Part shown: positions 4,006 through 43,567 of the stretch, in pieces | How positions within the stretch are numbered: the first letter of the stretch is position 1 | Layout: every line of letters begins with the position of its first letter | Origin: Squalus acanthias | Taxonomy: Eukaryota | Length of the DNA stretch: 64,000 nt | Direction of reading: 5' to 3' | NCBI GenBank assembly: GCA_030390025.1 | Contig: CM059437.1 | Coordinates: 15,748,001-15,812,000, forward strand | Made by a program: the position numbers and the translations under genes | The notes under the pieces: generated by a model | Databases searched by the model: none | What the model saw: only the letters and a program-made list of their open reading frames with translations | What the model was told of the DNA's origin: nothing

Positions 4006-4245
4006 CTACAATTAAGGAAAAGGATTTATTGATAATCACCATGAACAGCAAAGCATAACTAAGTGTCCGACAAAGCAACCTTTATTAAAATTAACCCTCA
4101 TAGATACACATGGGTTCTAAAAACAAACTAGAAGAACTGTTTTATTATTGGAAAAAATACATGTACCAAGTGAAAAATTCTAGATATGCCAATGGGGTGG
4201 CTTATGAGTCAATTTCCCTGCTCATGGAGTGGCCACCAAGACATG

Positions 4246-4428
4246 ATGCGGAGATGCCGGTGTTGGACTGGGGTGGACAAATGTGAGAAGTCGCACAACA
4301 CCAGGTTATAGTCCAACAGCTTTATTTGAAATCACAAGCTTTCGGAGCTGACTTCACCTGACGAAGGAGCAGCGCTCCGAAAGCTTGTGATTTCAAATAA
4401 AGCTGTTGGACTATAACCTGGTGTTGTG
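4246..4428. mobile_element. Fold-back Penelope-like fragment, family A copy 1
   Basis: Inverted arms; 12-bp TSD CACCAAGACATG at 4234-4245 and 4429-4440; hammerhead core followed by AATAAA. Confidence 0.8.
4354..4390 (+). ncRNA. Minimal type I hammerhead ribozyme motif
   Basis: tcac-CTGACGA-a-GGAGC(agc)GCTCC-GAAA-GCTT-gtga: core boxes, stem II, stem I tcac/gtga, palindromic AGCT stem III. Confidence 0.75.
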
Positions 4429-4467
4429 CACCAAGACATGGGAGAGTCTGTCACATGCCAATTACCA

Positions 4468-8985: not shown

Positions 8986-9088
8986 GAAATAACAACAGAA
9001 AACGCTGGAAAAACTCAGCAGGCCAGGCAGCATCCGTGGAGAGAGAAACAGAGTTAACGTTTCAGGTCGAAAACCTTTCATCAGACCT
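8986..9088 (-). mobile_element. Penelope-like fragment, family B, single arm with hammerhead motif at 9052-9088
   Basis: Minus strand reads aggt-CTGATGA-a-AGGT(tttcg)ACCT-GAAA-CGTT-aact; homologous to 43144-43368. Confidence 0.7.
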
Positions 9089-15031: not shown

Positions 15032-15415
<384 letters not shown>

Positions 15416-20718: not shown

Positions 20719-21055
20719 TGATGTGGAGATGCGGGTTGGACTGGGGTGGACAAATGTGAGAAGTCGCACAACACCAGGTTATAGTCCAACAGTTTTATTT
20801 GAAATCACAAGCTTTCGGAGCTTTTCCATACAGACCCCAGCATCTGCCACATTTGACCCCTTGTGACCCCACCTCATTGTCTTTGATGTAATGTTTTCCT
20901 GACTGACCTGTTTGGACACCATCCACACCTTTGATTGCCGTGATTATCTCTCTGCCGAGGTGCGATAAAGGGCAGTTAGAAAGATTAACTGTAGTCATCT
21001 GGCAGTGTTCTCTGACTATATATGCTGTGCCTATATGCATCTCTTCACTTCACCT
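20719..21055. mobile_element. Penelope-like fragment, family A copy 2
   Basis: Inverted 3' end homologous to 4246-4348, then about 230 bp of extra sequence ending cttcacct(ga); 12-bp TSD GAAAAATATCCC at 20707-20718 and 21056-21067. Confidence 0.75.
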
Positions 21056-21922: not shown

Positions 21923-24900
21923 TTTTTTTTAATTCGTTCCTGGGATGTGGGTGTTGCTGGCATGGCCAGCATTTATTGCCCACATCTAATTGCCCTTGAG
22001 AAGGTGGCACTGAGTCGCCTTCTTGAACTGCTGCAGTCCGTGTGGTGAAGGTACTCCCACAGTGCTGTTCGGGAGGGAGTTCCAGGATTTTGACCCAGCG
22101 ACGATGAAGGAACGGAGATATATTTCCAAGTCAGGATGGTGTGCAACTTGGAGGGGAACTTCAGGTGATGGCGTTCCTATGCGCCTACTGACCTTGTCCT
22201 TCTAGGTGGTAGAGGTCGCGGGTTTGGGAGGCGCTGCCGAAGAAGCCTTGGCGAGTTGCTGCAGTGCATTTTGTAGATGGTACACACTGCAGCCACGGTG
22301 CGCCAGTGGTGCAGAGAGTGAATGTTTAAGGTGGTGGATGGGGTGCGAATCAAGCGGGCTGCTTTGTCCTGGATGCTGTGGAGCTTCTTGAGTGTTGTTG
22401 GAGCTGCACTCATCCAGGCAAGTGGAGAGTATTCCATCACACTCCTGACTTGTGCCTTGTAGATGATGGAAAGGTTTTGGGGAGTAAGGAGGTGAGACAC
22501 TCGCCGCAGAATACCCAGCCTCTGACCTGCTCTTGTTGCCACAGTATTTATGTGGCTGGTCCAGTTAAGTTTCTGGTCAATGGTGACCCCCAGGATGTTG
22601 ATGGTGGGGGATTCGGCGATGGTAATGCCGTTGAATGTCAAGGGGCGGTGATTAGACTCTCGCTTGTTGGAGATAGTCATTGCCTGGCACTTGTGTGGCA
22701 TGAATATTACTTGCCATTTATCAGCCCAAGCCTGAATGTCATCCAGGTCTTGCTGCAGTCGGGCATGGACTGCTTCATTATCTGAGGAGTTGCGAATGGA
22801 ACTGAACACTGTGCAATCATCTGCGAACATCCCCATTTCTGACCTTATGATGGAGGGAAGGTCATTGATGAAGCAGCTCAAGATGGTTGGGCCTAGGACA
22901 CTGCCCTGAGGAACTCCTGAAGCGATGTCCTGGGGCTAAGATGATTGACCTCCAATAACCACAACCATCTTCCTTTGTACGAGGTATGACTCCAGCCAGT
23001 GGAAAGTTTTCCCGATTCCCATCAATTTTACTAGAGCTTCTTGATGCCACAGTCGGTCAAATGCTGCCTTGATGTCAAGGGCAGTCACCCTCACCTCGGG
23101 AATGCAGCTCTTTTATCCATGTTTGGACCAAAGTAATGAGGTCTGGAGCCGAGTGGTCTTGGCAGAACCCAAACTGAGCATCGGTGAGCAGGTTATTGGT
23201 AAGTGCCGCTTGATAGCACTGCCGACAACACCTTCCATCACTTTGCTGATGATTGAGAGTAGACGGATGGGGCAGTAATTGGCCAGATTGGATTTGTCCT
23301 GCTTTTTGTGGACAGGACATACCTGGGCAGTTTTCCATATCGTCAGGTAGATGCCAGTGTTGTAGCTGTACTGGAACAGTTTGGCTAGAGGCGTGGCTAG
23401 TTCTGGAGCAGAAGTCTTCGGCATGACAGCCGGGATGTTGTAAGGGCACATAGCCTTTGCTGTATCCAGTGCGTTCAGCCATTTCTTGATATCACGTGGA
23501 ATGAATTGAATTGCCTGAAGACTGGCTTCTGTGATGGTGGGTACCTCAGGAGGAGGCCGATATGGATCATCCACTTGGCACTTCTGGCTGAAGATGGTTG
23601 CAAACGCTTCAGCCTTGTCTTTTGCACTCGCATGATGGGTTCCAGCAGCATTGAGGATGGGGATATTCCTGGAGCCTCCTCCTCCCCCCGTTCGTTGTTT
23701 AATTGTCCACCACCATTCACGACTGGATGTGGCAGGACCGTAGAGCTTTGATCTGATCCGTTGATTGTGGGATCGCTTAGCTCTGTCTATAACATGCTGC
23801 TTCCACTGTTTAGCATGCATGTAGTTCTGTGTTGCAGCTTCCCCAGGTTGGCACCTCATTTTTAGGTACGCTTGGTGCTGCTCCTGGCATGCTGTTCTGC
23901 ACACCTCATTGAACCAGGGTTGGTCCCCTGGCTTGATGGTAATGGTAGAATGAGGGATATGCCGGGACATAAGTTTACAGATTATGGTGGAATACAATTC
24001 TGCTGCTGCTGATGGCCCACAGCGCCTCATGGATGCCCAGTTTTGAGCTGCTAGATCTGTTCTGAATCTATCCCATTTAGCACGGTGGTAGTGCCACACA
24101 ACACGATGGAGGGTGTCCTCAGTGTGAAGACGAGATTTTGTCTCCACAAGGATGGTACGGTGGTCAGTGCTACCAATGCTGTCATGGACAGATGCATCTG
24201 CGACAGATAGATTGGGGAGGACGAGGTCAAGTAGGTTTTTCCCTCGTGTTGGTTCTCTCATCACCTGCCGTAGTTAGTCTGGCAATTATGTCCTTCAGGA
24301 CTCGGCCAGCTCGGTCAGTAGTGGTGCTACTGAACCACTCTTGGTGCTGGACATTGAAGTCCCCCACTCAGATTACATTCTGTGCCCTTGCTACCCTAAG
24401 TGCTTCTTCCAAGTGGTGTTCAACATGGAGGAGTACTGATTCATCAGCTGAGGGAGAGCGTAAGGTGGTAATCAGCAGGAGATTCCTTGCCCATGCTTGA
24501 CCTTAAGCCATGAGACTTCATGGGGTCCGGAGTCAATGTTGAGGACTCCCAGGGCCACTCCCTCCCGAATACCACTGTGCTGCCACCTCTGGTGGGTCTG
24601 GACATACCCAGCGATGGTGATGGAGGAATCTGGGGCATTGGCTGAAAGGTATGCTTCTGTGAGTATGACTATGTCAGGCTGTTGCTTGACTAGTCTGTGG
24701 GACAGCTCTCCCATTTCGGCACAAGTCCCCAGATGTTAATGAGGAGGACTTTGCAGGGTCAACTGGGCTGGTGTGCCGTTGTTGTGTTTGAAGCCGGTGC
24801 CGAGGTCGATCTGGTTTTATTCTTATTATTGTTTTTCGTAGCGGTTTGTTACAAGTGAGTGGCTTGCTGGGCCATTTCAGAGGGCAGTTAAGAGTCAACC

Positions 24901-26130: not shown

Positions 26131-26269
26131 ACTGAATGGTGGAGCAGGCTCGAGCAGCCGTATGGCCTGCTCCTGCTCCTAATTCTTATGTGCCTCTCAG
26201 AAAATAATTTTCAGGACAGTGCCCAAATAAATTGAATTTAATCTTTGTTAATTTTCTCCCTTGAAATGC

Positions 26270-27170
<901 letters not shown>

Positions 27171-27522: not shown

Positions 27523-28076
27523 CCTTTCCACCATCTACAAGGCACAAGTAAGGAGTGTGATGGAATACTCTCCACTTGCCTGGATGAGTGCAGCTCCAAC
27601 AACACTCAAGAAGCTCGACACCATCCAGGACAAAGCAGCCCGCTTGATTGGCACCCCATCCACCACCTTAAACATTCACTCCCTCCACCACCGGCGTACC
27701 GTGGCTGCAGTGTGTACCATCTACAAGATGCACTGCAGCAACTCGCCAAGGCTTCTTCGGCAGCACCTCCCGAACCCGCGACCTCTTCCACCTAGAAGGA
27801 CAAGGGCAGCAGGTGCATGGGAACACCACCACCTCCAAGTTCCCCTCCAAGTCACACACCATTCTGACTTGGAAATATATCGCCGATCCTTCATCGTCGC
27901 TGGGTCAAAATCCTGGAACTCCCTCCCTAACAGCACTGCGGGAGTACCTTCACCACACGGACTGCAGCGGTTCAAGAAGGCGGCTCACCACCACCTTCTC
28001 AAGGGCAACTAGGGATGGGCAATAAATGCTGGCATCGCCAGCGACGCCCAGATCCCATAAAAACTAATTTTTAAAA
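27523..28076 (+). mobile_element. 5'-truncated copy of the LINE family at 21923-25170
   Basis: ORF 27515-28012 YKAQVRSVMEYSPLAWMSAAPTTLKKL is nearly identical to ORF 22177-22881. Confidence 0.9.
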
Positions 28077-28522: not shown

Positions 28523-30727
28523 CTGAAATCAAAGCACACATACAATTAGCAAAAGTTGCTGAGACGACAAGGATACAACACAAAGGAAGGTTCCGCAAGT
28601 TACCGATTGCGGTGCCGATGCTCTGAACAGCTTTCCAACAGTGTGGCGAGAGATCAATGCACCTATCTGTATGGTAAAAATTAGAGAAACTACATGCTTG
28701 GCATTTGCAAACAAAACTGAAACAAAAGGAAGCTTACAGGGCAATACGTGCATTTACTTAGCACTTTGTCAAAACATCTCAAAAATTATTTTGCACAACA
28801 AGTTACTTTTGAAGAGTAGGGACTTAGATGGACAAAAACAGCAGTCTGATACCAGGATCAGTAACGAGTGGTACAGACCATCAAAAAGGCAAGAAACTTT
28901 TAGTGACTGTACTTCAAAAGCTAATCCACTGATTGTAAAGCATTTGGGACTTTTTACAGATGTAGAAAGGTGCTGTATACGTGCAAGTTTGTTCTTTTTA
29001 TGAATTTTACAAACTTTTATCACAGTATTCACAAAGAGAGCTAAAATTCAGGAAAAAATTCAGTTCTGCATGCAAACTACAGGCAGCAAATTCAGACCAC
29101 TAGCGATTCCTTGAAGGGAAAACCGAAAGGCAAACAGGCTTCTTTGACTTCTCTCTTGTATTTTTGTTTCTATTTGTCTCCCTAATTGTTAAGCGTCCAA
29201 GTCCAGATTTGAAATTTGGAGTAAATCAGATTCTGAGCTGTTCTGGATGGGAAAGGTCAGGGTTCAACACTTGGTATTACTAGTAATATTTTATACAGAG
29301 GCAAATATGCACACACAGTGCCTCCAACCAGAAACAGAACCTTAAAATTACTGTCTACTGTCAATTGCAATATACATATAGTTAAGAGATCCCAGAGGAC
29401 TGAACATTTAAATCACTACAGCACTGGCTTCCTGCCTTACAATTACAACACAAAATTGAATTTGAAGGGCCACGAATTGCAAGTGACGCCAAATTTCTAC
29501 CGCCCTCAATTTTCCGAGCTCATATCAACACAGCGTAACTAAAGGGGATTCGAGCTAAAGTTGAAAAATTATTCAGTCAGTCACCCCAATCCAGCATTTT
29601 GAAATGCACCTTCTGGGAATGAGGAGCGAGGCAAAAATCTTAAAAATATAAACTAATTCAGGTTAACAGTGTAAGTAACCCAATTTAAAAAAGAAAGAAG
29701 CCTCCCTGTTCAACTGCAGCAAGAGTCTGCATTTACAAATGCTGTGGAATCAAAGAAACAAGATATTTTAGCACTCAAACTTACCCGCATGGTGCTGGAG
29801 ATTGATGTTTTATATTTAGGAAAACAATTTTCTGGGCAATTGCAGATTCTTCAAGTCACTGAGACAATGCCTGCAGATTATAAGGAAAAGGTTACTGAAT
29901 TTCACAGTTACAATCACATTACTAGAGAAAGACGACCAGAATGTGAATAAGACAGCTTTATAATTGAATAGACTGGACATAACTGTGTGATGGGAAGAAT
30001 CCAGCTCAGTCAGCACTGTATGCCTCTGTGGAGCACTTTGAGACATTTTTCTGCATTAAAGATGCTGTATAAAGCTGTTGTGATGACTACTAGACACACA
30101 AAAAAGACACTCCTGCCTTTGAGCTTAAGTGCGCATATCCCGAAATCCATGGTCAGTTTTAAATTGCATAAAAGAATCTCACATAGATTCTATACAAATT
30201 TTGGTTATCTGCAAAATGGAGAATGCAGGAGGAAAACAAGACTAAGTGGTTTTGTAAGTCGTGGGAGGAAAGGGGATTTTTCCTCCTCCACCCACCACAC
30301 AGTACATCATGACAGATACTGTATCATCGAATTAAATATCAGTGTCAAGATGCCTTAAATCAACATCGACTCTGATGCGGATGCTTTTTCCATCAACAGT
30401 TATCAATTGATCGAAGTCTAAAGTAAAACTTAAAATTTTCAAATTCAACGACTTTCTGAAACCCTGTTCAGGTCACTGAGGAATGCCTTTAAAAACCGTA
30501 GTTTGCCTGCCAGCTTAGAACTTGGAACGTAGAAGATATGGGCAACAAAATATCCAATGGCAGAGTTATCAATACTGATAATCCCGCTCCCTGCCGATAA
30601 ATGTATTACTTTATACTCGATAAATGTATTCGATAAATGTACAGTATCAGATCTCTTAAGTCAGCCAACGTGCAATTAAGAGGAAGGCCAGTAGCTATCC
30701 AGAATCACCCAGGTATTGATTTAAGTA

Positions 30728-30930
30728 AGAAGTCGCACAACACCAGGTTATAGTCCCAACAGTTTTATTTGAAATCACAAGCTTTCGGAGCGGCTGCTCC
30801 TTCGTCAGGTGACGAAGGAGCAGCCGCTCCGAAAGCTTGTGATTTCAAATAAAACTGTTGGGACTATAACCTGGTGTTGTGCGACTTCTCACTTTTGTCC
30901 ACCCCAGTCCAACACCGGCATCTCCGCATC
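30728..30930. mobile_element. Fold-back Penelope-like fragment, family A copy 3
   Basis: 80-bp arms 30728-30807 and 30810-30889; 12-bp TSD TTGATTTAAGTA at 30716-30727 and 30931-30942. Confidence 0.85.
30775..30812 (-). ncRNA. Minimal type I hammerhead ribozyme motif, sense to PSMC5 pre-mRNA
   Basis: Minus strand reads tcac-CTGACGA-a-GGAGC(agcc)GCTCC-GAAA-GCTT-gtga. Confidence 0.75.
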
Positions 30931-30994
30931 TTGATTTAAGTAGTTCAATATTATATCAACCAGAATTTAATTTTGTTCCCAAGTGAAACAGCTC

Positions 30995-31390
30995 TTCCAA
31001 TGGCTCAGTGAACAATCACACCACGTGGTATATAACTAAGTTCAAGAGACCAGAAGGTCCCAGATTCAATTTCTGGGCTGCTGAGTTGGGCAATCTCAGT
31101 TACAGTGCAATTCGCCTCGACACATTTGAGCTAGGGAGGGGGCAAACAGAGAGAGGCCGGCTTACCACGCCCGATTATCAAATGTCTCTCGCTGCAAAGT
31201 GCATGTGTGCCAACATTGGACGACAAGATCGGGCTTGGTTGTGATGGTCCATGGTTAAACTGCCAACACTCACTGTTCATGCTCACTTATGAAAACTGGC
31301 CACTTGTGCAAGGTACAGGAGGGCTGCTAGCACCCATGGAATGATATTCTCCAGTAAGAGTGAGCATCTTCAGGAAAGGAGAGAAAATTG
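30995..31390 (+). mobile_element. Degenerate ancient SINE-like repeat
   Basis: Shared motifs with 9150-10190. Confidence 0.45.
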
Positions 31391-33276
31391 GCAAAAACTA
31401 AAACCACACACACTATTGTGTGCCGTTCATTAACATTTATCAACCACATATTATTACATTGCTGCAAGAAACACTGCAGTTGATTATCAGCCCAATAGAT
31501 TGGGATAGGGGTCATCAGGCAAATTTCCAGCTGACTTATTGGTTGACTGGGTTACCTGTCCCAATAAACAAAGCTGTTTCAGATGTTCCGGCTTGGACAT
31601 TGCAAAATTGAGGGCGCCCACAAGGAACAGACTGTGCCACAGTTCCGGAGACTGCCATCACTGGATAAGCGGAGGGTGAAACCTTTGTATGTTGCTATTG
31701 TAAAATGCTGAATGTTTTGGACAAATGCCCGGGCAATATGACATGGATACAATTCAGAGCAGGAGTCGTCGAACAGCAGAGATATAGTCATGAACACTGG
31801 GTGTCATTTGAACTACCTCTCTGTGTTAGTGCCGCTCCCCCACACTCAAAACTCCTACAAACCTGCAAAAAAAAATCAGGATGTATTAACAAAATGATTC
31901 AGAAAAAGTCAATTTAATTTATATAAGAATCAGCTTAAAATTTCAGTAGAAATGTTAAGTTTCCTTTCAACATTTCTATCACTTTGCAAAAAAAAAAGAG
32001 CTTCAAACAAACGCTCTTTGATCTCAAGAATTCACTGAATATTGACCAATTGCAGGAAAGCAGCCTAGTACAGCATTGGGTGGGTTTACTGACCAGTGAC
32101 TCCCTCAACGGTGAGTTATTATCGTATGATTTTACATACAACTCCTGCATTTTCCGCTCAAGACAAGTAAAACAGGTCAGCTGCTAGCAATCAAAAGTAG
32201 TTCACAATGAACTCAGTTGAATTCACTCTGGAAATGTGAAGGTTTTTTTGGCATTGGAGTGAACCAAGCTGTACTCATTGTGGAACAAGGGAAGCCACAG
32301 CTGTTATCTCCACAAGGTTTTGCAGAGTACTGACCTCTACTGGAAGCTAATATTACTGACCAAATTCCCCTCCGTGTTTTCCAGATGAAGCAGAACATGG
32401 AGGGAAGTTACCCAATTCTCTCTCTCCACCCCCCCCCCCCCCCCCCCCCCCAACCCGGACGAGTTTTTAAGCTGACAAACTCTGGAGAGTAACAATTTCC
32501 ACCGCTTACACCTCCTTTATTTTACAGCAACAATACTAGGATGTACACTGGGCAACACTGTTCTCACCAGAGGAACGGAGAACTTGACTGCAAAGGCAGC
32601 AGTTCCACCAACAGCACGTGTGAATTGTCACCACTGGTTCGTGCAGGCCTGCCTCAGTTATCGGGTGGGGGTGGGGGGGGGGGGGGGGGGAAGGGGAAAG
32701 TCTGGCAGCCTGAAAGGATAGATTGCCGACTTGATAGTGTCTTCATTCTTTGAATGAGATGGATCACCTACACACCATAGGCGCACACCATAGGAGTGTA
32801 GCCTAGCTTGATGGGTTCTGAGGAAACCACAAGCTGAACATGTACATGTAAAGACTGCTGTGATATCACAAGTAGGCAGCACTGCACAGAATTAACTACT
32901 CGTGTTGTATAAAGCTCCAGGATCTATGCCATTGCACCACCTTGCTTTGGCCAGAAGCTAAACGGAAAGTAACCAGCTACTTAATACTAATTCCACCACC
33001 CCCTTTATATCTTTCGCCCTCCAGATGGGTATGTATCGAAGAGCGATGAACCTGCCAGGCAGGTGCTCTTTCTTCTTCTTTCCACATCCTCCAAATGTCA
33101 TCGGAGCACATCAACACAGAACAACTTTAGGAGGATGACAGGGAGGCCCTCAGTTGTAACCATAACAACTGGCGTGAAAACTGACCTGCCAAAACACATT
33201 GTATGCTGCAGTTAAATCCAGATAGTAATAGTTTGTAGAACTGATCTACTTGGCAGCCTATCGTACCTTCTATAAA

Positions 33277-33606: not shown

Positions 33607-35516
33607 TATAGAAGATATGAGCAGGAGTAGGCCATTCGGCCCCTCGAGCCTGTTCCGCCATTTAATGAGATCATGGCTGATCATCCAAATTCAGTACCCT
33701 GTCCCTGCTTTCTCCCCATATCCCTTTAGCCTTAAGAAATATATCTAACTCCTTCTTGAATATATTTAATGAATTGGCCTCAACTCCTTGTGTGGTACAG
33801 AATTCCACAGGTTCACCACTCTCTGGGTGAAGAAATTCCTTCTCATCTCAGTCCTAAATGGCTTACCCCTTATCCTTAGACTGTGACCCCTGGTTCTGGA
33901 CTCCCCCGCCATCGGGAACATCCTTGCTGCATCTAGTCTGTCTAGTCCTGTTAGAATTTTATAAGTTTCAATGAGATCCCCTCTCATTCTTCTAAACTCT
34001 AGCGAATATAAGCCTAATCGACCCAATCTCTCCTCATACGTCATTCCTGCCATCCCAGGTATCAGTCTGGTGAATCTTCGCTGCACTCTCTCCATGGCAA
34101 GAACATCCTTCCTCAGATAAGGTGACCAAAACTGCACACAATACTCAAGGTGTGGTCTCACCAAGGCCCTGTACAACTGCAAGACATCCTTGCACCTGTA
34201 CTCGAATCCTCTCGCTATGAAGGCCAACATACCATTTGCCTTCTTAACCGCCTGCTGCACCTGCATGCTTACCTTCAGCGATTGGTGCACAAGGACACCC
34301 AGGTCTTGTTGCACTTCCCCTTTTCCCAATCTATTGCCGTTCAGATAATAATCTGTCTTCCTGTTTTTGCCACCAAAGTGGATAACCTCGCATTTATCCA
34401 CATTATACTGCATTTGCCATGCATCTGCCCAATCACCCAACCTGTCCAAATCATACTGGAGTTTCTCTGCATCCTCCTCACAGCACACACGCCCACCCAG
34501 CTTTGTGTTGTCTGCAAACTTGGAGATATTACATCTAGTTCCCTCATCTAGATCATTTATATATATTGTGAACAGCTGGGGTCCTAGCACCGATCCCTGC
34601 GGTACCCCACTAGTCACTGCCTGCCACTCGGAAAAAGACCCGTTTATTCCAACTCTTTGCTTCCTGTCTGCCAACCAGTTCTCTATCCAAGACAGTACCT
34701 TACCCCCAATCCCGTGTGCTTTAACTTTGCGTGCTAATCTCTTATGCGGGACCTTATCGAAAGCCTTCTGAAAGTCCAAATACACCACATCCACTGGTTC
34801 TCCCTTATCTATTCTACCAGTTACATCCTCAAAAAATTCCAGTAGATTCGTCAAGCATGATTTACCTTTTGTAAATCCATGTTGACTTTGTCCGATTCTG
34901 TCACTGTTTTCCAAGTGCTCTGCTATTACATCTTTTATAATGGACTCTAGCATTTTCCCCACTACCGATGTCAGACTTAATATAGTCTATAATTCCCCGT
35001 TTTCTCTCTCCCACCTTTTTTAAATAGTGGGGTTACATTAGCTATCCTCCAATCCATGGGAACTGTTCCAGAGTCTATAGAATTTTGGAAGATGACTAGC
35101 AATGCATCTACTATTTCTAGGGCCACTTCCTTAAGTACCCTAGGATGCAGATTATCAGGCCCTGGGGATTTATCGGCCTTCAATCCCATCAATTTCCCCA
35201 ACACCATTTCCCTACAAATACTGATTTCATTCAATTCCTCCTTCTCATTAGACCCTATGTTCCCCGACATCTCTGGGAGGTTATTTGTGTCCTCCTTTGT
35301 GAAGACAGAACCAAAGTATGTATTTAATTGGTCTGCCATTTCTTTGTTCCCCATTATAAATTCCCCTGATTCTGACGCTTGACTTCACCAATCTTTTTCT
35401 CTTCACATATCTATAGAAGCTTTTACAGTCAGTCAGTTTTTATGTTCCCTGCAAGCTTACTCTCATAATCTATTTTCCCCCTCTTAATTAATCCCTTTGT
35501 CCTCCTTTGCTGAATC
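33607..35516 (-). mobile_element. 5'-truncated CR1 LINE with interrupted RT ORF
   Basis: ORFs 33766-34962 and 34977-35354 (QHGFTKGKSCLTNL, YLDFQKAFDKVPH, GVPQGSVLGP); catalytic motif reads FADN instead of FADD. Confidence 0.95.
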
Positions 35517-37360: not shown

Positions 37361-37764
37361 TTTTTTTGTTGCATTGTCAGTTTATGAACCTGAGGTCAGT
37401 ATTTTGATGATTACAAAAATACCTGGGATAGAAACCTGTTCTGTGCTGAGCAGGAGCCCCACCGCCGCTGATGTTAGCCTGGCTGGGCAGGCCGGCAATG
37501 CCAAGGCCCCACAGGTGGCTCAGACCACAGGAAAGGCCGGTGTGTGTATGAGGTGAGCAGAGCGGCCCCGGGGTGGGCCCAGGGATCTCCCCCCACAAAC
37601 CTCCGCCCGCCCCCGCGGCCTGAGCTCCAGACCCCCAGCCCAAGGCCTTACCTCACTAGCCAGAAAACCCTCCTGGGCGGGCCTCAGGTCTCGGACTGGG
37701 AGTGCAAGTCATGGCCGGGGCAAAGCGCGGCCGACTCCCATCACCCCGATCCCAGGCCCCTCAC

Positions 37765-37779
37765 CTCGACCACCTTCAT
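37765..37779 (-). CDS. PSMC5: PSMC5 exon 1 coding part (MKVVE)
   Basis: agaATGAAGGTGGTCGAG|GTGAGG within the CpG island; phase 0 join to exon 2 gives a 1212-nt CDS (403 aa). Sequence diverges from human MALDGPEQ, so less certain. Confidence 0.7.
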
Positions 37780-37891
37780 TCTCCCACCTCCCCGGCCCGG
37801 CCTCTCCTCCTCCCCGGTACATCCTCAGACCGCCAACCCGGCCCGGCCCAACTCACCCAAACCCGGCTTCGCCACCAGCTCCGGCCCAGCT

Positions 37892-38229
37892 CTGCGTCTT
37901 AAAGCGAGACTGTCCCGACCGTGCGTCTTAAAGCGAGACTGTCCCGACCGTGCGTCTTAAAGCGAGACTGTCCCGACCGTGCGTCTTAAAGCGAGACTGT
38001 CCCGACCGTGCGTCTTAAAGCGAGACTGTCCCCACCGTGCGTCTTAAAGCGAGACTGTCCCCACCGTGCGTCTTAAAGCGAGACTGTCCCCACCGTGCGT
38101 CTTAAAGCGAGACTGTCCCCACCGTGCGTCTTAAAGCGAGACTGTCCCCACCGTGCGTCTTCAAGCGACACTGTCCCCACCGTTCGTCTTCAAGCGACAC
38201 TGTCCCCACCGTGCGTCTTCAAGCGAGAC
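37892..38229. repeat. 29-bp minisatellite, about 11.7 copies
   Basis: Unit GTGCGTCTTAAAGCGAGACTGTCCC(G/C)ACC head-to-tail with no spacers. Confidence 0.97.
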
Positions 38230-38801
38230 CTACTACTGCACTTTTTCAAGTTCCTATTTCATTTTTATTAAAATTGGTTCATCAGCTTTTAGAACACTCT
38301 CCTCCAAAAAGCTGTTGAGACTGGGGGGTCAATTGAAATTTTCTAAATTGAGATTGATTTTTGTTAGGCAAGGGTATTAAGGGTTACAGAACCACCGTGG
38401 GTAGATGCAGCTATGAATGGCAGAACAGGCTGGAGGGGCTGAATGACCTGTTCTTGTTCCTATCATTACTTAGAAATGTATACATAAAAGTCATTGCCTT
38501 TGTATCGGCTTCATAGTAACAAATTACCACCTAATAGTAATGAAGGATTCTGCTTAAAACGCTAAACTATCTCTCTCTCTTCTAAATGCTGATCGGTCTG
38601 TTACATAATTCTAGCATTCTGACTTTAATTGACAATCTGTATCATCTGCCATACAGTTTAATCTTGAGCTTGTGCATAAATATGAAACAGACCCTCCATT
38701 TAGCTGTAAAAATGCTCAAACTATAATTATTCACCAATTGTAGAAAATGTCTACTTGCAAATGTGATATGTTTGAACAATGGCCAGCCAATGTGATATGG
38801 T

Positions 38802-39017
38802 CAGACTATTGCAAGATGCTGGAAATCTGATACAAAAGCAGAAAATGATGGACACACTCAGCAGGTCAGAGAGCATTCATCCAGAAAACACAAATCAGTT
38901 AGTGTTTGAGGTATAAACCCTTTTTCAGAATGGAGGGTTTATACCTGAAACATCAACTGATTCATGTTTTCCTGACAGATGTTGCCTGACCTGCTGAGCA
39001 TCGCCAGCATTTCCTGT
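38802..39017. mobile_element. Degenerate fold-back Penelope-like fragment, family B
   Basis: Inverted arms (gaggtataaaccct / agggtttatacctg); 14-bp direct repeat CAATGTGATATGGT at 38788-38801 and 39018-39031. Confidence 0.65.
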
Positions 39018-42027: not shown

Positions 42028-43143
42028 TTCAGTACAACACTTTTGTATACTAGTATGGGAGCGACAAGGCCATCTCCTCCCCAGTATTTCAACAGTGGTG
42101 GTACAGTACATGCTGACTGCTGGCAATTTTTTTTTAAGTGTACTAAGAGTAGCCACATTTTTGTAACTTTGCCAACATGCAACAAAAACCTCAACACAAA
42201 GTCGAATGCAGAGTTGTTACTATGGTAGTGTTAGATTACGTTAGCTGTGAATAGAAAACATCACCTCACCACAATACAGACTAAGGTAACTACTGTCCTT
42301 AAAACTTGCTGAAAGATCTGATTTCAACCTGCATTTCACAGCTATAGTTGTAAATTTTATAGCTGATCCAAGCAGCTTCCTGAGCCAAGAAATATGACCC
42401 ACAAAGATACGAATGTCAAGAAATACAATGTTCAGTCACTGTCAGATTGAATAGTATTACGATCAGGTGGCACACTCTCATTGCAGCAGACAAGTTGCCT
42501 GGATTTATCATCTGGAAGACATTTTTGTAGAAAATAAAATCATGGAATATATTCTGTTTGGGAAAGAAAGGAATAAACGGGGGTGGGGGGGGGAAAGAGA
42601 GGAAGGAGAGAAAATATAAATGCAATCCTCCCCCAAAAAATATGAAAAAAAATAGGGTCAAACTGCAAGAGCTAAAATCTGATACAAACCCTTGTAGCGC
42701 TAAAATATTATGTATGAAACAGTCAGGTGCATTTTCACCCCCTCCACATACCATTGTGCTCAAGATAACTGGTTTTCAGGGCTTAGTCAATGTCATTCTG
42801 AAACCAATCTGCAGGGGGTGCTGGGCCAAGACCGGATCAACTGATTTTCACTTCCACCTTGTGGGGGAAGCACCTGAATTTTAATTGGCCCTTTCTATAA
42901 TTAGGATTATGATGCTCAGGATTATGGAGATCATGAAGTCAGTGCACAGTTCCAGGGGGCGGGCGGGGGATGACCAATTTTAAAATCCATCAACACTCAA
43001 ATTTAATCAACATAATCCAACAAGTCAAGACAATTTGTTTTTAATGTGAAGACCTAACGTAATCAGTGTTAGGCGAGTCTCTGAAAATGCATGCAAACAA
43101 AACAATTACTGTTTAAATTTGCCTGAAGACAGTAATAGGAGAT

Positions 43144-43368
43144 AAAAACAGAAAATGCTGGAAATACTCAGGTCAGGCAGCATCTGTGGAGAGAGAAACA
43201 GAGTTAACATTTCAGGTCGATGACCCTTCTCCAGTTCTGACGAAGGGTCATTGACCTGAAACGTTAACTCGGTTTCTCTCTCCACAGATGCTGCCTGACC
43301 TGAGTATTTCCAGCATTTTCTGTTTTTATTTCAGATTTCCAGCATCCGCAGTATTTTGCTTTTGTATT
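43144..43368. mobile_element. Fold-back Penelope-like fragment, family B
   Basis: Inverted arms of about 85 bp; degenerate 13-bp TSD AGTAATAGGAGAT (43131-43143) and AGTACTACGAGAT (43369-43381). Confidence 0.8.
43233..43269 (+). ncRNA. Minimal type I hammerhead ribozyme motif
   Basis: agtt-CTGACGA-a-GGGTC(att)GACCT-GAAA-CGTT-aact: stem I agtt/aact, palindromic ACGT stem III. Confidence 0.75.
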
Positions 43369-43567
43369 AGTACTACGAGATGTTCAATTATGGATTATAA
43401 AATAATCTAATAGTGTTCAAATGTGCGTATCGATAAGGGTTTGGATACCAAAAGTATAACAATGTTCCAATTAAAAATAAAACAAAGCAGCAGTTCTGGA
43501 GGATGTCACATACAAAACTTGGTTTACAGGAATGGGAGGGTGTGTTAATGTAAATATTTTAATATTG

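Follow-up and report, generated by a model that had tools for sequence, protein, structure and literature searches.

The PSMC5 locus

The window, i.e. the whole stretch of 64,000 nucleotides (64 kb) of Squalus acanthias DNA that was analysed, carries on its minus strand the gene of the 26S proteasome subunit 8 (PSMC5/Rpt6). The exon at 8501-8689 matches this protein in 63 of 63 residues, and its 11 coding exons, which begin with MDLEEG and end with the stop codon, lie within 3952-28522 (minus). Upstream of them, an 86-nt segment at 29785-29870 (minus) with AG/GT ends, which terminates in ATG CGG, is the likely exon 2; it resembles a 29-residue segment of the zebra-shark RefSeq model XP_048416515.1 with a protein score that is not significant on its own. 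The likely exon 1 and the promoter are located at 37601-38287 (minus), in a CpG-rich region with a 29-bp tandem repeat and a donor near 37857. The N-terminal extension of the zebra-shark model matches the translated tandem repeat (tblastn, E 0.002-0.01), and the only CpG-island-like run upstream of the PSMC5 coding exons spans 37601-38260. A short coding exon 1 like that of human PSMC5 was not found in the window. The palindrome described below had been assigned to intron 1 of PSMC5 in an initial annotation of this DNA. The minus-strand position of the gene is confirmed, and the location of the insert within intron 1 is likely, the support being homology to the predicted zebra-shark gene model rather than RNA. 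The insert lies 858 nt from the acceptor of exon 2 and carries an intact hammerhead motif in PSMC5 sense.

Some further features of the locus were recorded. The 29-bp tandem repeat extends over 37806-38287, and the N-terminus of the zebra-shark model contains two copies of a similar motif. The ATG CGG at the end of exon 2 is in frame with MDLEEG, and the protein may start with MR or at the next ATG. The PSMC5 exon ending at 15170 is followed by the donor GCAAGT (15169-15164, minus), i.e. by a GC-AG intron. A FAM117/GLCCI1-like gene (61929-50300, minus) is situated directly upstream of PSMC5 on the same strand, and the zebra-shark RefSeq isoform XP_059494702.1 (824 aa) joins FAM117/GLCCI1-like exons to PSMC5 via the 86-nt exon, which suggests read-through splicing.

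A perfect palindrome within a 203-bp insert

The arms at 30728-30807 and 30810-30889 are exact reverse complements (80/80 pairs) separated by a loop of 2 nt (GG), precisely as the initial annotation had described them. The extent given there holds for the arms, but the element runs on to 30930, and a 12-bp duplication on either side of it had been overlooked. Thus, the palindrome is part of a 203-bp insert (30728-30930) between 12-bp direct repeats. Sequence comparison identifies these repeats as the left (30716-30727, plus) and right (30931-30942, plus) copies of a target-site duplication, TTGATTTAAGTA, which is AT-rich and contains ATT; the chance of such a 12-mer near both ends of the insert is about 8e-5. 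The short, tail-less arm (30728-30807, minus) represents a sense copy of the element end on the PSMC5 sense strand. In the long arm, the part paired with the short arm (30810-30889, plus) contains a hammerhead truncated by the junction, and a further 41 nt (30890-30930, plus), by which the long arm exceeds the partner of the left arm, form a one-sided tail that copy 1 likewise carries on its long arm and that recurs in copy 2 (see below). The arms meet head-to-head at the junction TCA-GG-TGA (30805-30812) with a 3-nt overlap (microhomology). At this centre, the plus strand retains the natural letters TCAGGTGA, which overlap the other arm by TCA/TGA; the natural upstream letters were taken from copy 1, and loose contig ends lie at 30812.

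The minus-strand RNA of the palindrome region folds with a computed energy of -181.3 kcal/mol (z = -22.6), a stability that none of 200 shuffles reached, and the value for the hairpin as DNA is -104.8 kcal/mol. Only one other perfect hairpin with a stem of at least 18 bp and a loop of at most 40 nt is found in the 64 kb, namely copy 1. Each arm also contains an AATAAA (30769, minus; 30848, plus) followed by a GT-rich stretch, resembling a poly(A) signal, the former being in sense to PSMC5. Apart from one GTGAG at 30892, no strong splice sites were found on the minus strand of the insert.

Related copies in the window

The window contains four head-to-head palindromes that belong to two families, A and B, and are paired at 80/80, 56/56, 93/101 and 64/83 positions (100% to 77%). 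Family A, which includes the 203-bp insert, occupies three loci. Its copy 1 (4234-4440), located in the last PSMC5 intron, shows the same layout with a 12-bp duplication of its own, a 25-nt loop, 56/56 pairs and the intact motif antisense to PSMC5; its short arm stops about 10 nt earlier than that of the 203-bp insert, and its target is devoid of ATT, in contrast to the AT-rich, ATT-containing target of the insert. Since copy 1 combines the same layout with its own duplication and with a different centre and ends, the palindrome is not one fixed unit. Copy 2 (20720-20821, minus) is a single 5'-truncated arm with tail and without catalytic core. In family B, a palindrome at 43134-43370 (right boundary approximate) carries a different minimal hammerhead, a one-armed tail and a 3-nt deletion common to both arms (93/101 paired), and an older family-B-like palindrome lies at 38815-39017 (64/83 paired). 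The palindromic parts of these two loci span 43134-43337 and 38839-39016, respectively. A lone family B arm (8986-9088, minus) is found on the sense strand of a PSMC5 intron, with an intact core, 3 of 4 pairs in helix I and no adjoining opposing arm. One-sided tails are thus seen in copy 1 and in both family B palindromes, too. No target-site duplication was found for copy 2 or the 43-kb palindrome. With regard to polarity, the 5'-extended, intact motif resides on the tail-less arm in family A (2/2) and on the tailed arm in family B (2/2).

Aligned over 105 columns, the long arm of the 203-bp insert shows 2-3 substitutions relative to copies 1 and 2. Three variants had initially been listed as shared by both arms and absent from copy 1. 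Two of them, an extra base in GTCCCAAC and the AGCC loop, are indeed mirrored in both arms and missing from copy 1, but the third, CAGTTTT, occurs in copy 2 as well and is therefore not private to the insert. Copy 2 is without the extra base in GTCCCAAC, and the site of the AGCC loop falls outside its coverage. Given the two mirrored one-base insertions, both arms are likely to stem from one template lineage, in line with one of the two origins proposed initially (a single template or homogenisation). The 5' truncations of the copy 1 long arm (4348) and of the copy 2 arm (20821, minus) coincide at a single base, with which the 3' strand of helix II begins; this is possibly a preferred stop of the reverse transcriptase (RT).

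A minimal hammerhead motif

The initial annotation had reported a full hammerhead on the minus strand and a broken one on the plus strand. The former exists at the reported position (30775-30812, minus), but in a minimal form that has no helix III and no Rfam match. It is a type-I motif with a 4-bp helix I (UCAC/GUGA), CUGACGA, an extra A, a 5-bp helix II (GGAGC/GCUCC), GAAA, the palindrome AGCU in the place of helix III, and U17, in the standard position numbering. The conserved core (CUGANGA / GAAA / UH) is present, and the predicted cut site is between 30779 and 30778 (minus). The plus-strand motif is incomplete, as had been noticed; it is cut by the inversion junction, with loss of C3 and the 5' strand of helix I, and not decayed. 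A relaxed minimal-hammerhead descriptor of our own design returned four motifs in the window (4354-4390, plus; 43233-43269, plus; 30812-30775, minus; 9088-9052, minus) and none in each of 100 block-shuffled windows.

Rfam yielded 0 matches in the 64-kb window at the gathering score, and the 13 sub-threshold matches obtained for 30600-31100 with E up to 10 did not include a hammerhead family. A weak Rfam match to MIR8643 (61 bits vs a gathering score of 135) is owed to the hairpin shape. Between families A and B, the helices covary, with 8 of 11 pairs changed on both sides and 43 of 44 cells paired, a result that is descriptive only since it comes from four sequences of two lineages and since the structure was read from these same sequences. 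A canonical, monomer-active hammerhead was rejected as a candidate for the motif, as a stable helix III (AGCU only) and an Rfam hammerhead match are both missing. The motif resembles the minimal hammerheads described for repeats of metazoan Penelope-like elements (PLEs); these, too, belong to type I, with a short helix I, an extra base after position 9 (between 9 and 10.1), G10.1-C11.1, a palindromic AGCU (15.2-16.2) instead of helix III, and described opposite-strand pairs (PMC4209133). Differences are the shorter helix II (5 bp compared to 7-8 bp in the Schistosoma families; PMC4209133), the truncation of the partner motif by the junction, and the absence of a tandem dimer partner.

Probable Penelope-like origin

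In our judgement, the 203-bp insert very probably represents a recent and passive insertion, with two arms, of a Penelope-like retroelement's hammerhead-bearing end, the mirror arms likely having been written during insertion. It combines four features of PLE insertions, namely the minimal hammerhead, a head-to-head, 5'-truncated inverted copy, the one-sided 41-nt tail and the 12-bp duplication. PLE insertions with a head-to-head inverted pLTR, a tail on one arm and duplications of 8-10 bp are described in PMC3846280 and PMC8557442. For the anole element, the PLE protein was reported to cut and extend both target strands and is a predicted dimer; two RT start sites bound the tail, and AT-rich ATT targets are preferred (PMC11167929). 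The insert shares with EN+ PLE insertions (PMC3846280; PMC8557442; Poseidon PAc, PMC11167929) the head-to-head 5'-truncated arms, the palindromic junction, the tail on one arm, the short duplication, a hammerhead that lies about 120 nt upstream of the element's 3' end and, at this locus, the AT-rich site. It differs from these in having no open reading frame between the arms and a total length of only 203 bp, a tail of 41 nt (about 51 nt in copy 1) compared to 30-40 nt, and a duplication of 12 bp compared to 8-10 bp in the rotifer examples. The layout is thus already in print for PLEs, and the insert has very many sister copies. A description of this shark family was not found in our search of the open literature.

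Against this reading, the target of copy 1 contains no ATT, and a search for a PLE reading frame beside family A gave 0 matches in metagenome contigs, viral contigs, prokaryote genomes and phages. Pfam was applied to 28 of the 77 listed stop-to-stop frames of at least 90 aa and returned AAA (2), RVT_1 (2) and FAM117 (1), with 23 frames free of matches and no match to the GIY-YIG family among the 28. The two RVT_1 retroelement fragments are located in PSMC5 introns (33766-34986 and 22177-24273 minus, with the matches at 33.8-35.0 and 22.2-22.9 kb) and do not adjoin the 203-bp insert. Non-LTR retrozymes are similar to the insert in being short, non-coding, hammerhead-bearing and related to PLE repeats, and they are described for one surveyed chondrichthyan; however, they form head-to-tail tandems with a motif per unit, whereas the insert is head-to-head with one intact motif (10.64898/2026.07.22.740005). 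A retrozyme was rejected as a classification, the insert being devoid of head-to-tail units each with a complete motif.

Abundance, age and assembly

Contigs of four public runs out of 20 (DNA or unlabelled; X1, X5, X6 and X8) were compared with the 1.8-kb stretch at 29900-31700. Matching contigs numbered 13,702 (X1), 8,544 (X5), 2,379 (X6) and 2,287 (X8), some of which belong to a weaker repeat at 31.0-31.4 kb. The summed depth in X1, which is not a copy number, reached 1.6-4.0 million over the insert vs 5.2 in the left flank. Family A is clearly very abundant in three organisms, and its three loci within 64 kb agree with this. Many other copies do not have the two extra bases of the insert (31-70 contigs per position, X1).

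With regard to the locus itself, one X1 contig leads from the left flank into the short arm (to 30751) and another from the tail (from 30909) into the right flank; the right junction is also present in contigs of X5, which derives from another sample and study. Contigs specific to this locus that bridge the centre of the palindrome were absent among those listed. These junction contigs make the inverted layout independent of the assembly, the centre and the two mirrored indels lying outside their coverage. Position 30951 reads T in the window and C in all four runs, which reflects an allele or an assembly error.

At the orthologous position in organisms B and C (X6 and X8; flanks 3.5% diverged), neither an empty site nor the insert was seen. 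Flank contigs of B and C end at the insertion site (30728 and 30933) with 20 and 28 unplaced letters, which possibly represent another repeat, an insertion in opposite orientation at the AT-rich site, or clipping. If the insertion were older than the split from B and C, 2.8 mismatches between the arms would be expected, with a probability of 0.06 for none. A recent insertion is favoured.

Formation of the second arm

Given a PLE origin, we favour, with about even confidence, twin priming on the RNA of one donor copy and a join by 3-nt microhomology over fold-back and later conversion. A PLE RT/GIY-YIG protein encoded elsewhere would have nicked both strands of the AT-rich site, 12 bp apart, and each nick would have primed reverse transcription on RNA of one donor copy, the distal start site giving rise to the arm with the 41-nt tail and the proximal start site to the tail-less arm. 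Both cDNAs would then have stopped near the hammerhead, annealed by TCA/TGA and been filled in, resulting in the head-to-head palindrome. In L1 twin priming, both target nicks prime cDNA and the junction is made by microhomology. The proposed route has the two primed nicks and the microhomology join in common with L1; the L1 parts are different RNA stretches, whereas the arms here represent the same stretch. The tail on one arm fits the two RT start sites of the anole PLE. Of the two strands, the one with the natural 5' letters begins at the tail-less end; a plain fold-back would therefore be extended into flanking DNA and miss the tail, which favours twin priming. Against twin priming, fold-back or later conversion accounts no less simply for the mirrored one-base insertions, and the intact motif of family B is on the tailed arm (2/2), as plain fold-back explains.

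Less probable, for an insert of PLE origin, is that the second arm arose by fold-back self-priming at TCA-GG-TGA, followed by a switch to a short second cDNA that supplied the tail, with RT slips being mirrored in the copy. The two mirrored one-base run extensions do resemble RT slips, the 3-nt deletion is common to both family B arms, and self-priming has been proposed for palindromes at PLE junctions (PMC3846280). Moreover, base 30893 is unlike copies 1 and 2 and matches the complement of the left flank, by which the pairing is extended into the flank; however, base 30890 agrees with the element and not with the flank. In addition, an extra template switch would be required in both family A palindromes, and a stem of 3 bp closed by a 2-nt loop primes weakly.

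Alternatively, the arms may have been born different and homogenised later by hairpin-mediated conversion or template switching during replication. We regard this as unlikely, slightly less so once a PLE origin is granted. The arms are perfect although this copy has variants relative to its siblings, and the change at 30893 lengthens the pairing into the flank, both of which agree with homogenisation; yet the older palindromes in the window (93/101 and 64/83) were left unhomogenised, and a young age suffices to explain the perfect arms, considering the 2.8 mismatches, and the probability of 0.06 for none, predicted from the 3.5% flank divergence.

That the palindrome moves as a whole, in the manner of a MITE and as do the palindromic Harbinger repeats of Xenopus, is improbable. 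Such a unit would account for the high abundance and for contigs of other copies in X1 and X5 that cross a near-identical centre (4-5 other letters and 4 gap letters each). However, the ends are asymmetric, copy 1 and the 203-bp insert differ in the centre and in the end of the short arm, copy 2 is single-armed, and the contigs contain 88 different joints, some of which are caused by indels of the insert itself. A MITE or palindromic DNA transposon was rejected as a class, as symmetric, fixed termini common to the copies are not found.

Proposed masking of the ribozyme and fate of the duplex

The initial annotation had proposed that the hairpin masks the ribozyme in the host pre-mRNA. In computed folds, the arms would form an 80-bp duplex in the PSMC5 pre-mRNA that excludes the hammerhead fold: with the opposing arm present, both helix I and helix II have a pairing probability of 0, compared to 0.06-0.25 and 0.49-1.0, respectively, after its removal. 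The structural part of the proposal thus stands in silico, but masking as a function is not supported. In copy 1, the same layout is combined with an intact motif in antisense to PSMC5, and it also recurs at 43.1-43.3 and 38.8-39.0 kb, upstream of the likely exon 1.

According to the literature, a single minimal PLE motif did not cleave in vitro and dimers did so little (PMC4209133), the anole PLE hammerhead cleaved only with the PLE protein (PMC11167929), and cleavage was missing in 8 of 9 Xenopus dimers. Whether or not the hairpin forms, the cut-down ribozyme at this locus is predicted to have almost no activity; as a single minimal hammerhead would scarcely cleave in any case, the masking is probably incidental. 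The lone sense motif of family B at 9088-9052 lies unmasked in a PSMC5 intron, with a helix I pairing probability of about 0; because helix I is damaged, this motif is weak evidence for a tolerance of unmasked motifs.

Functional masking would mean that the motif cuts the PSMC5 pre-mRNA if exposed and that the opposing arm, which also covers the sense AATAAA at 30769, has been retained to prevent this. The motif is sense to PSMC5, the duplex abolishes the hammerhead fold in silico, and retrozymes are reported as under-represented in Xenopus introns (10.64898/2026.07.22.740005), which would agree with a certain burden on the host. We nevertheless hold this reading to be very improbable, considering the missing helix III, the inactivity or protein dependence of single minimal motifs and the non-cleaving Xenopus dimers cited above. 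Furthermore, the palindromes also occur antisense to and outside PSMC5 and decay with age, and copy 2 has the same AATAAA unmasked in the sense strand.

Weakest of all, and hardly credible, is that assembly or polishing has created the perfect symmetry or the mirrored variants: the contigs listed include no locus-specific one across the centre, and extensions of a run by one base, as in the mirrored variants, are frequent among read errors, but X1 contigs cover both outer junctions and X5 contigs the right one, the 12-bp duplication is present, and the same layout recurs at other loci.

Returning to the preferred reading of a passive PLE-derived insertion, the 80-bp intronic duplex is a plausible substrate of ADAR, and would likely remain so until eroded by mutations. 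Published cases of ADAR editing include self-folding repeats and the Penelope of lizards (PMC5625713). In Xenopus, the palindromic Harbinger repeats, which are substrates of ADAR hyper-editing, are similar to the insert in being about 200 bp long and self-folding, so that a distant partner is not needed; they belong to a DNA-transposon family with a palindromic consensus, whereas the symmetry here varies from copy to copy (PMC5625713). A more far-reaching idea, which we consider unlikely, is that the unit of about 125 nt from hammerhead to tail is a SINE-like PLE passenger that copies its own cDNA and produces a perfect hairpin and mirrored RT errors at each event. Sharks would then contain of the order of 1e5 self-folding intronic dsRNAs as a main ADAR substrate, and hosts would preferentially retain sense copies in which the ribozyme and the poly(A) signal are buried.

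As one locus, the 203-bp insert matters little; as a class, such insertions are useful. How PLEs make the inverted arm and the second strand is described as still open (PMC8557442, PMC11167929). A clue to the formation of the second arm of PLEs lies in the pair of one-base insertions that recur in mirror image in both arms, and counting young copies with variants mirrored in both arms can separate twin priming, fold-back and later conversion. In addition, the hairpins may add to the A-to-I editing of sharks, and microRNA searches may confuse them with precursors.

Other repeats were observed within PSMC5. Inverted repeats of about 530 bp (21941-22474 and 27523-28057), 90-94% complementary and 5 kb apart in neighbouring introns, flank one coding exon and are a candidate dsRNA. 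A direct duplication of about 245 bp (26262-26507 and 26835-27077; 570 bp apart, 94-96% alike) weakly matches the PSMC5 exon at 27122-27054 in the end part of this exon.
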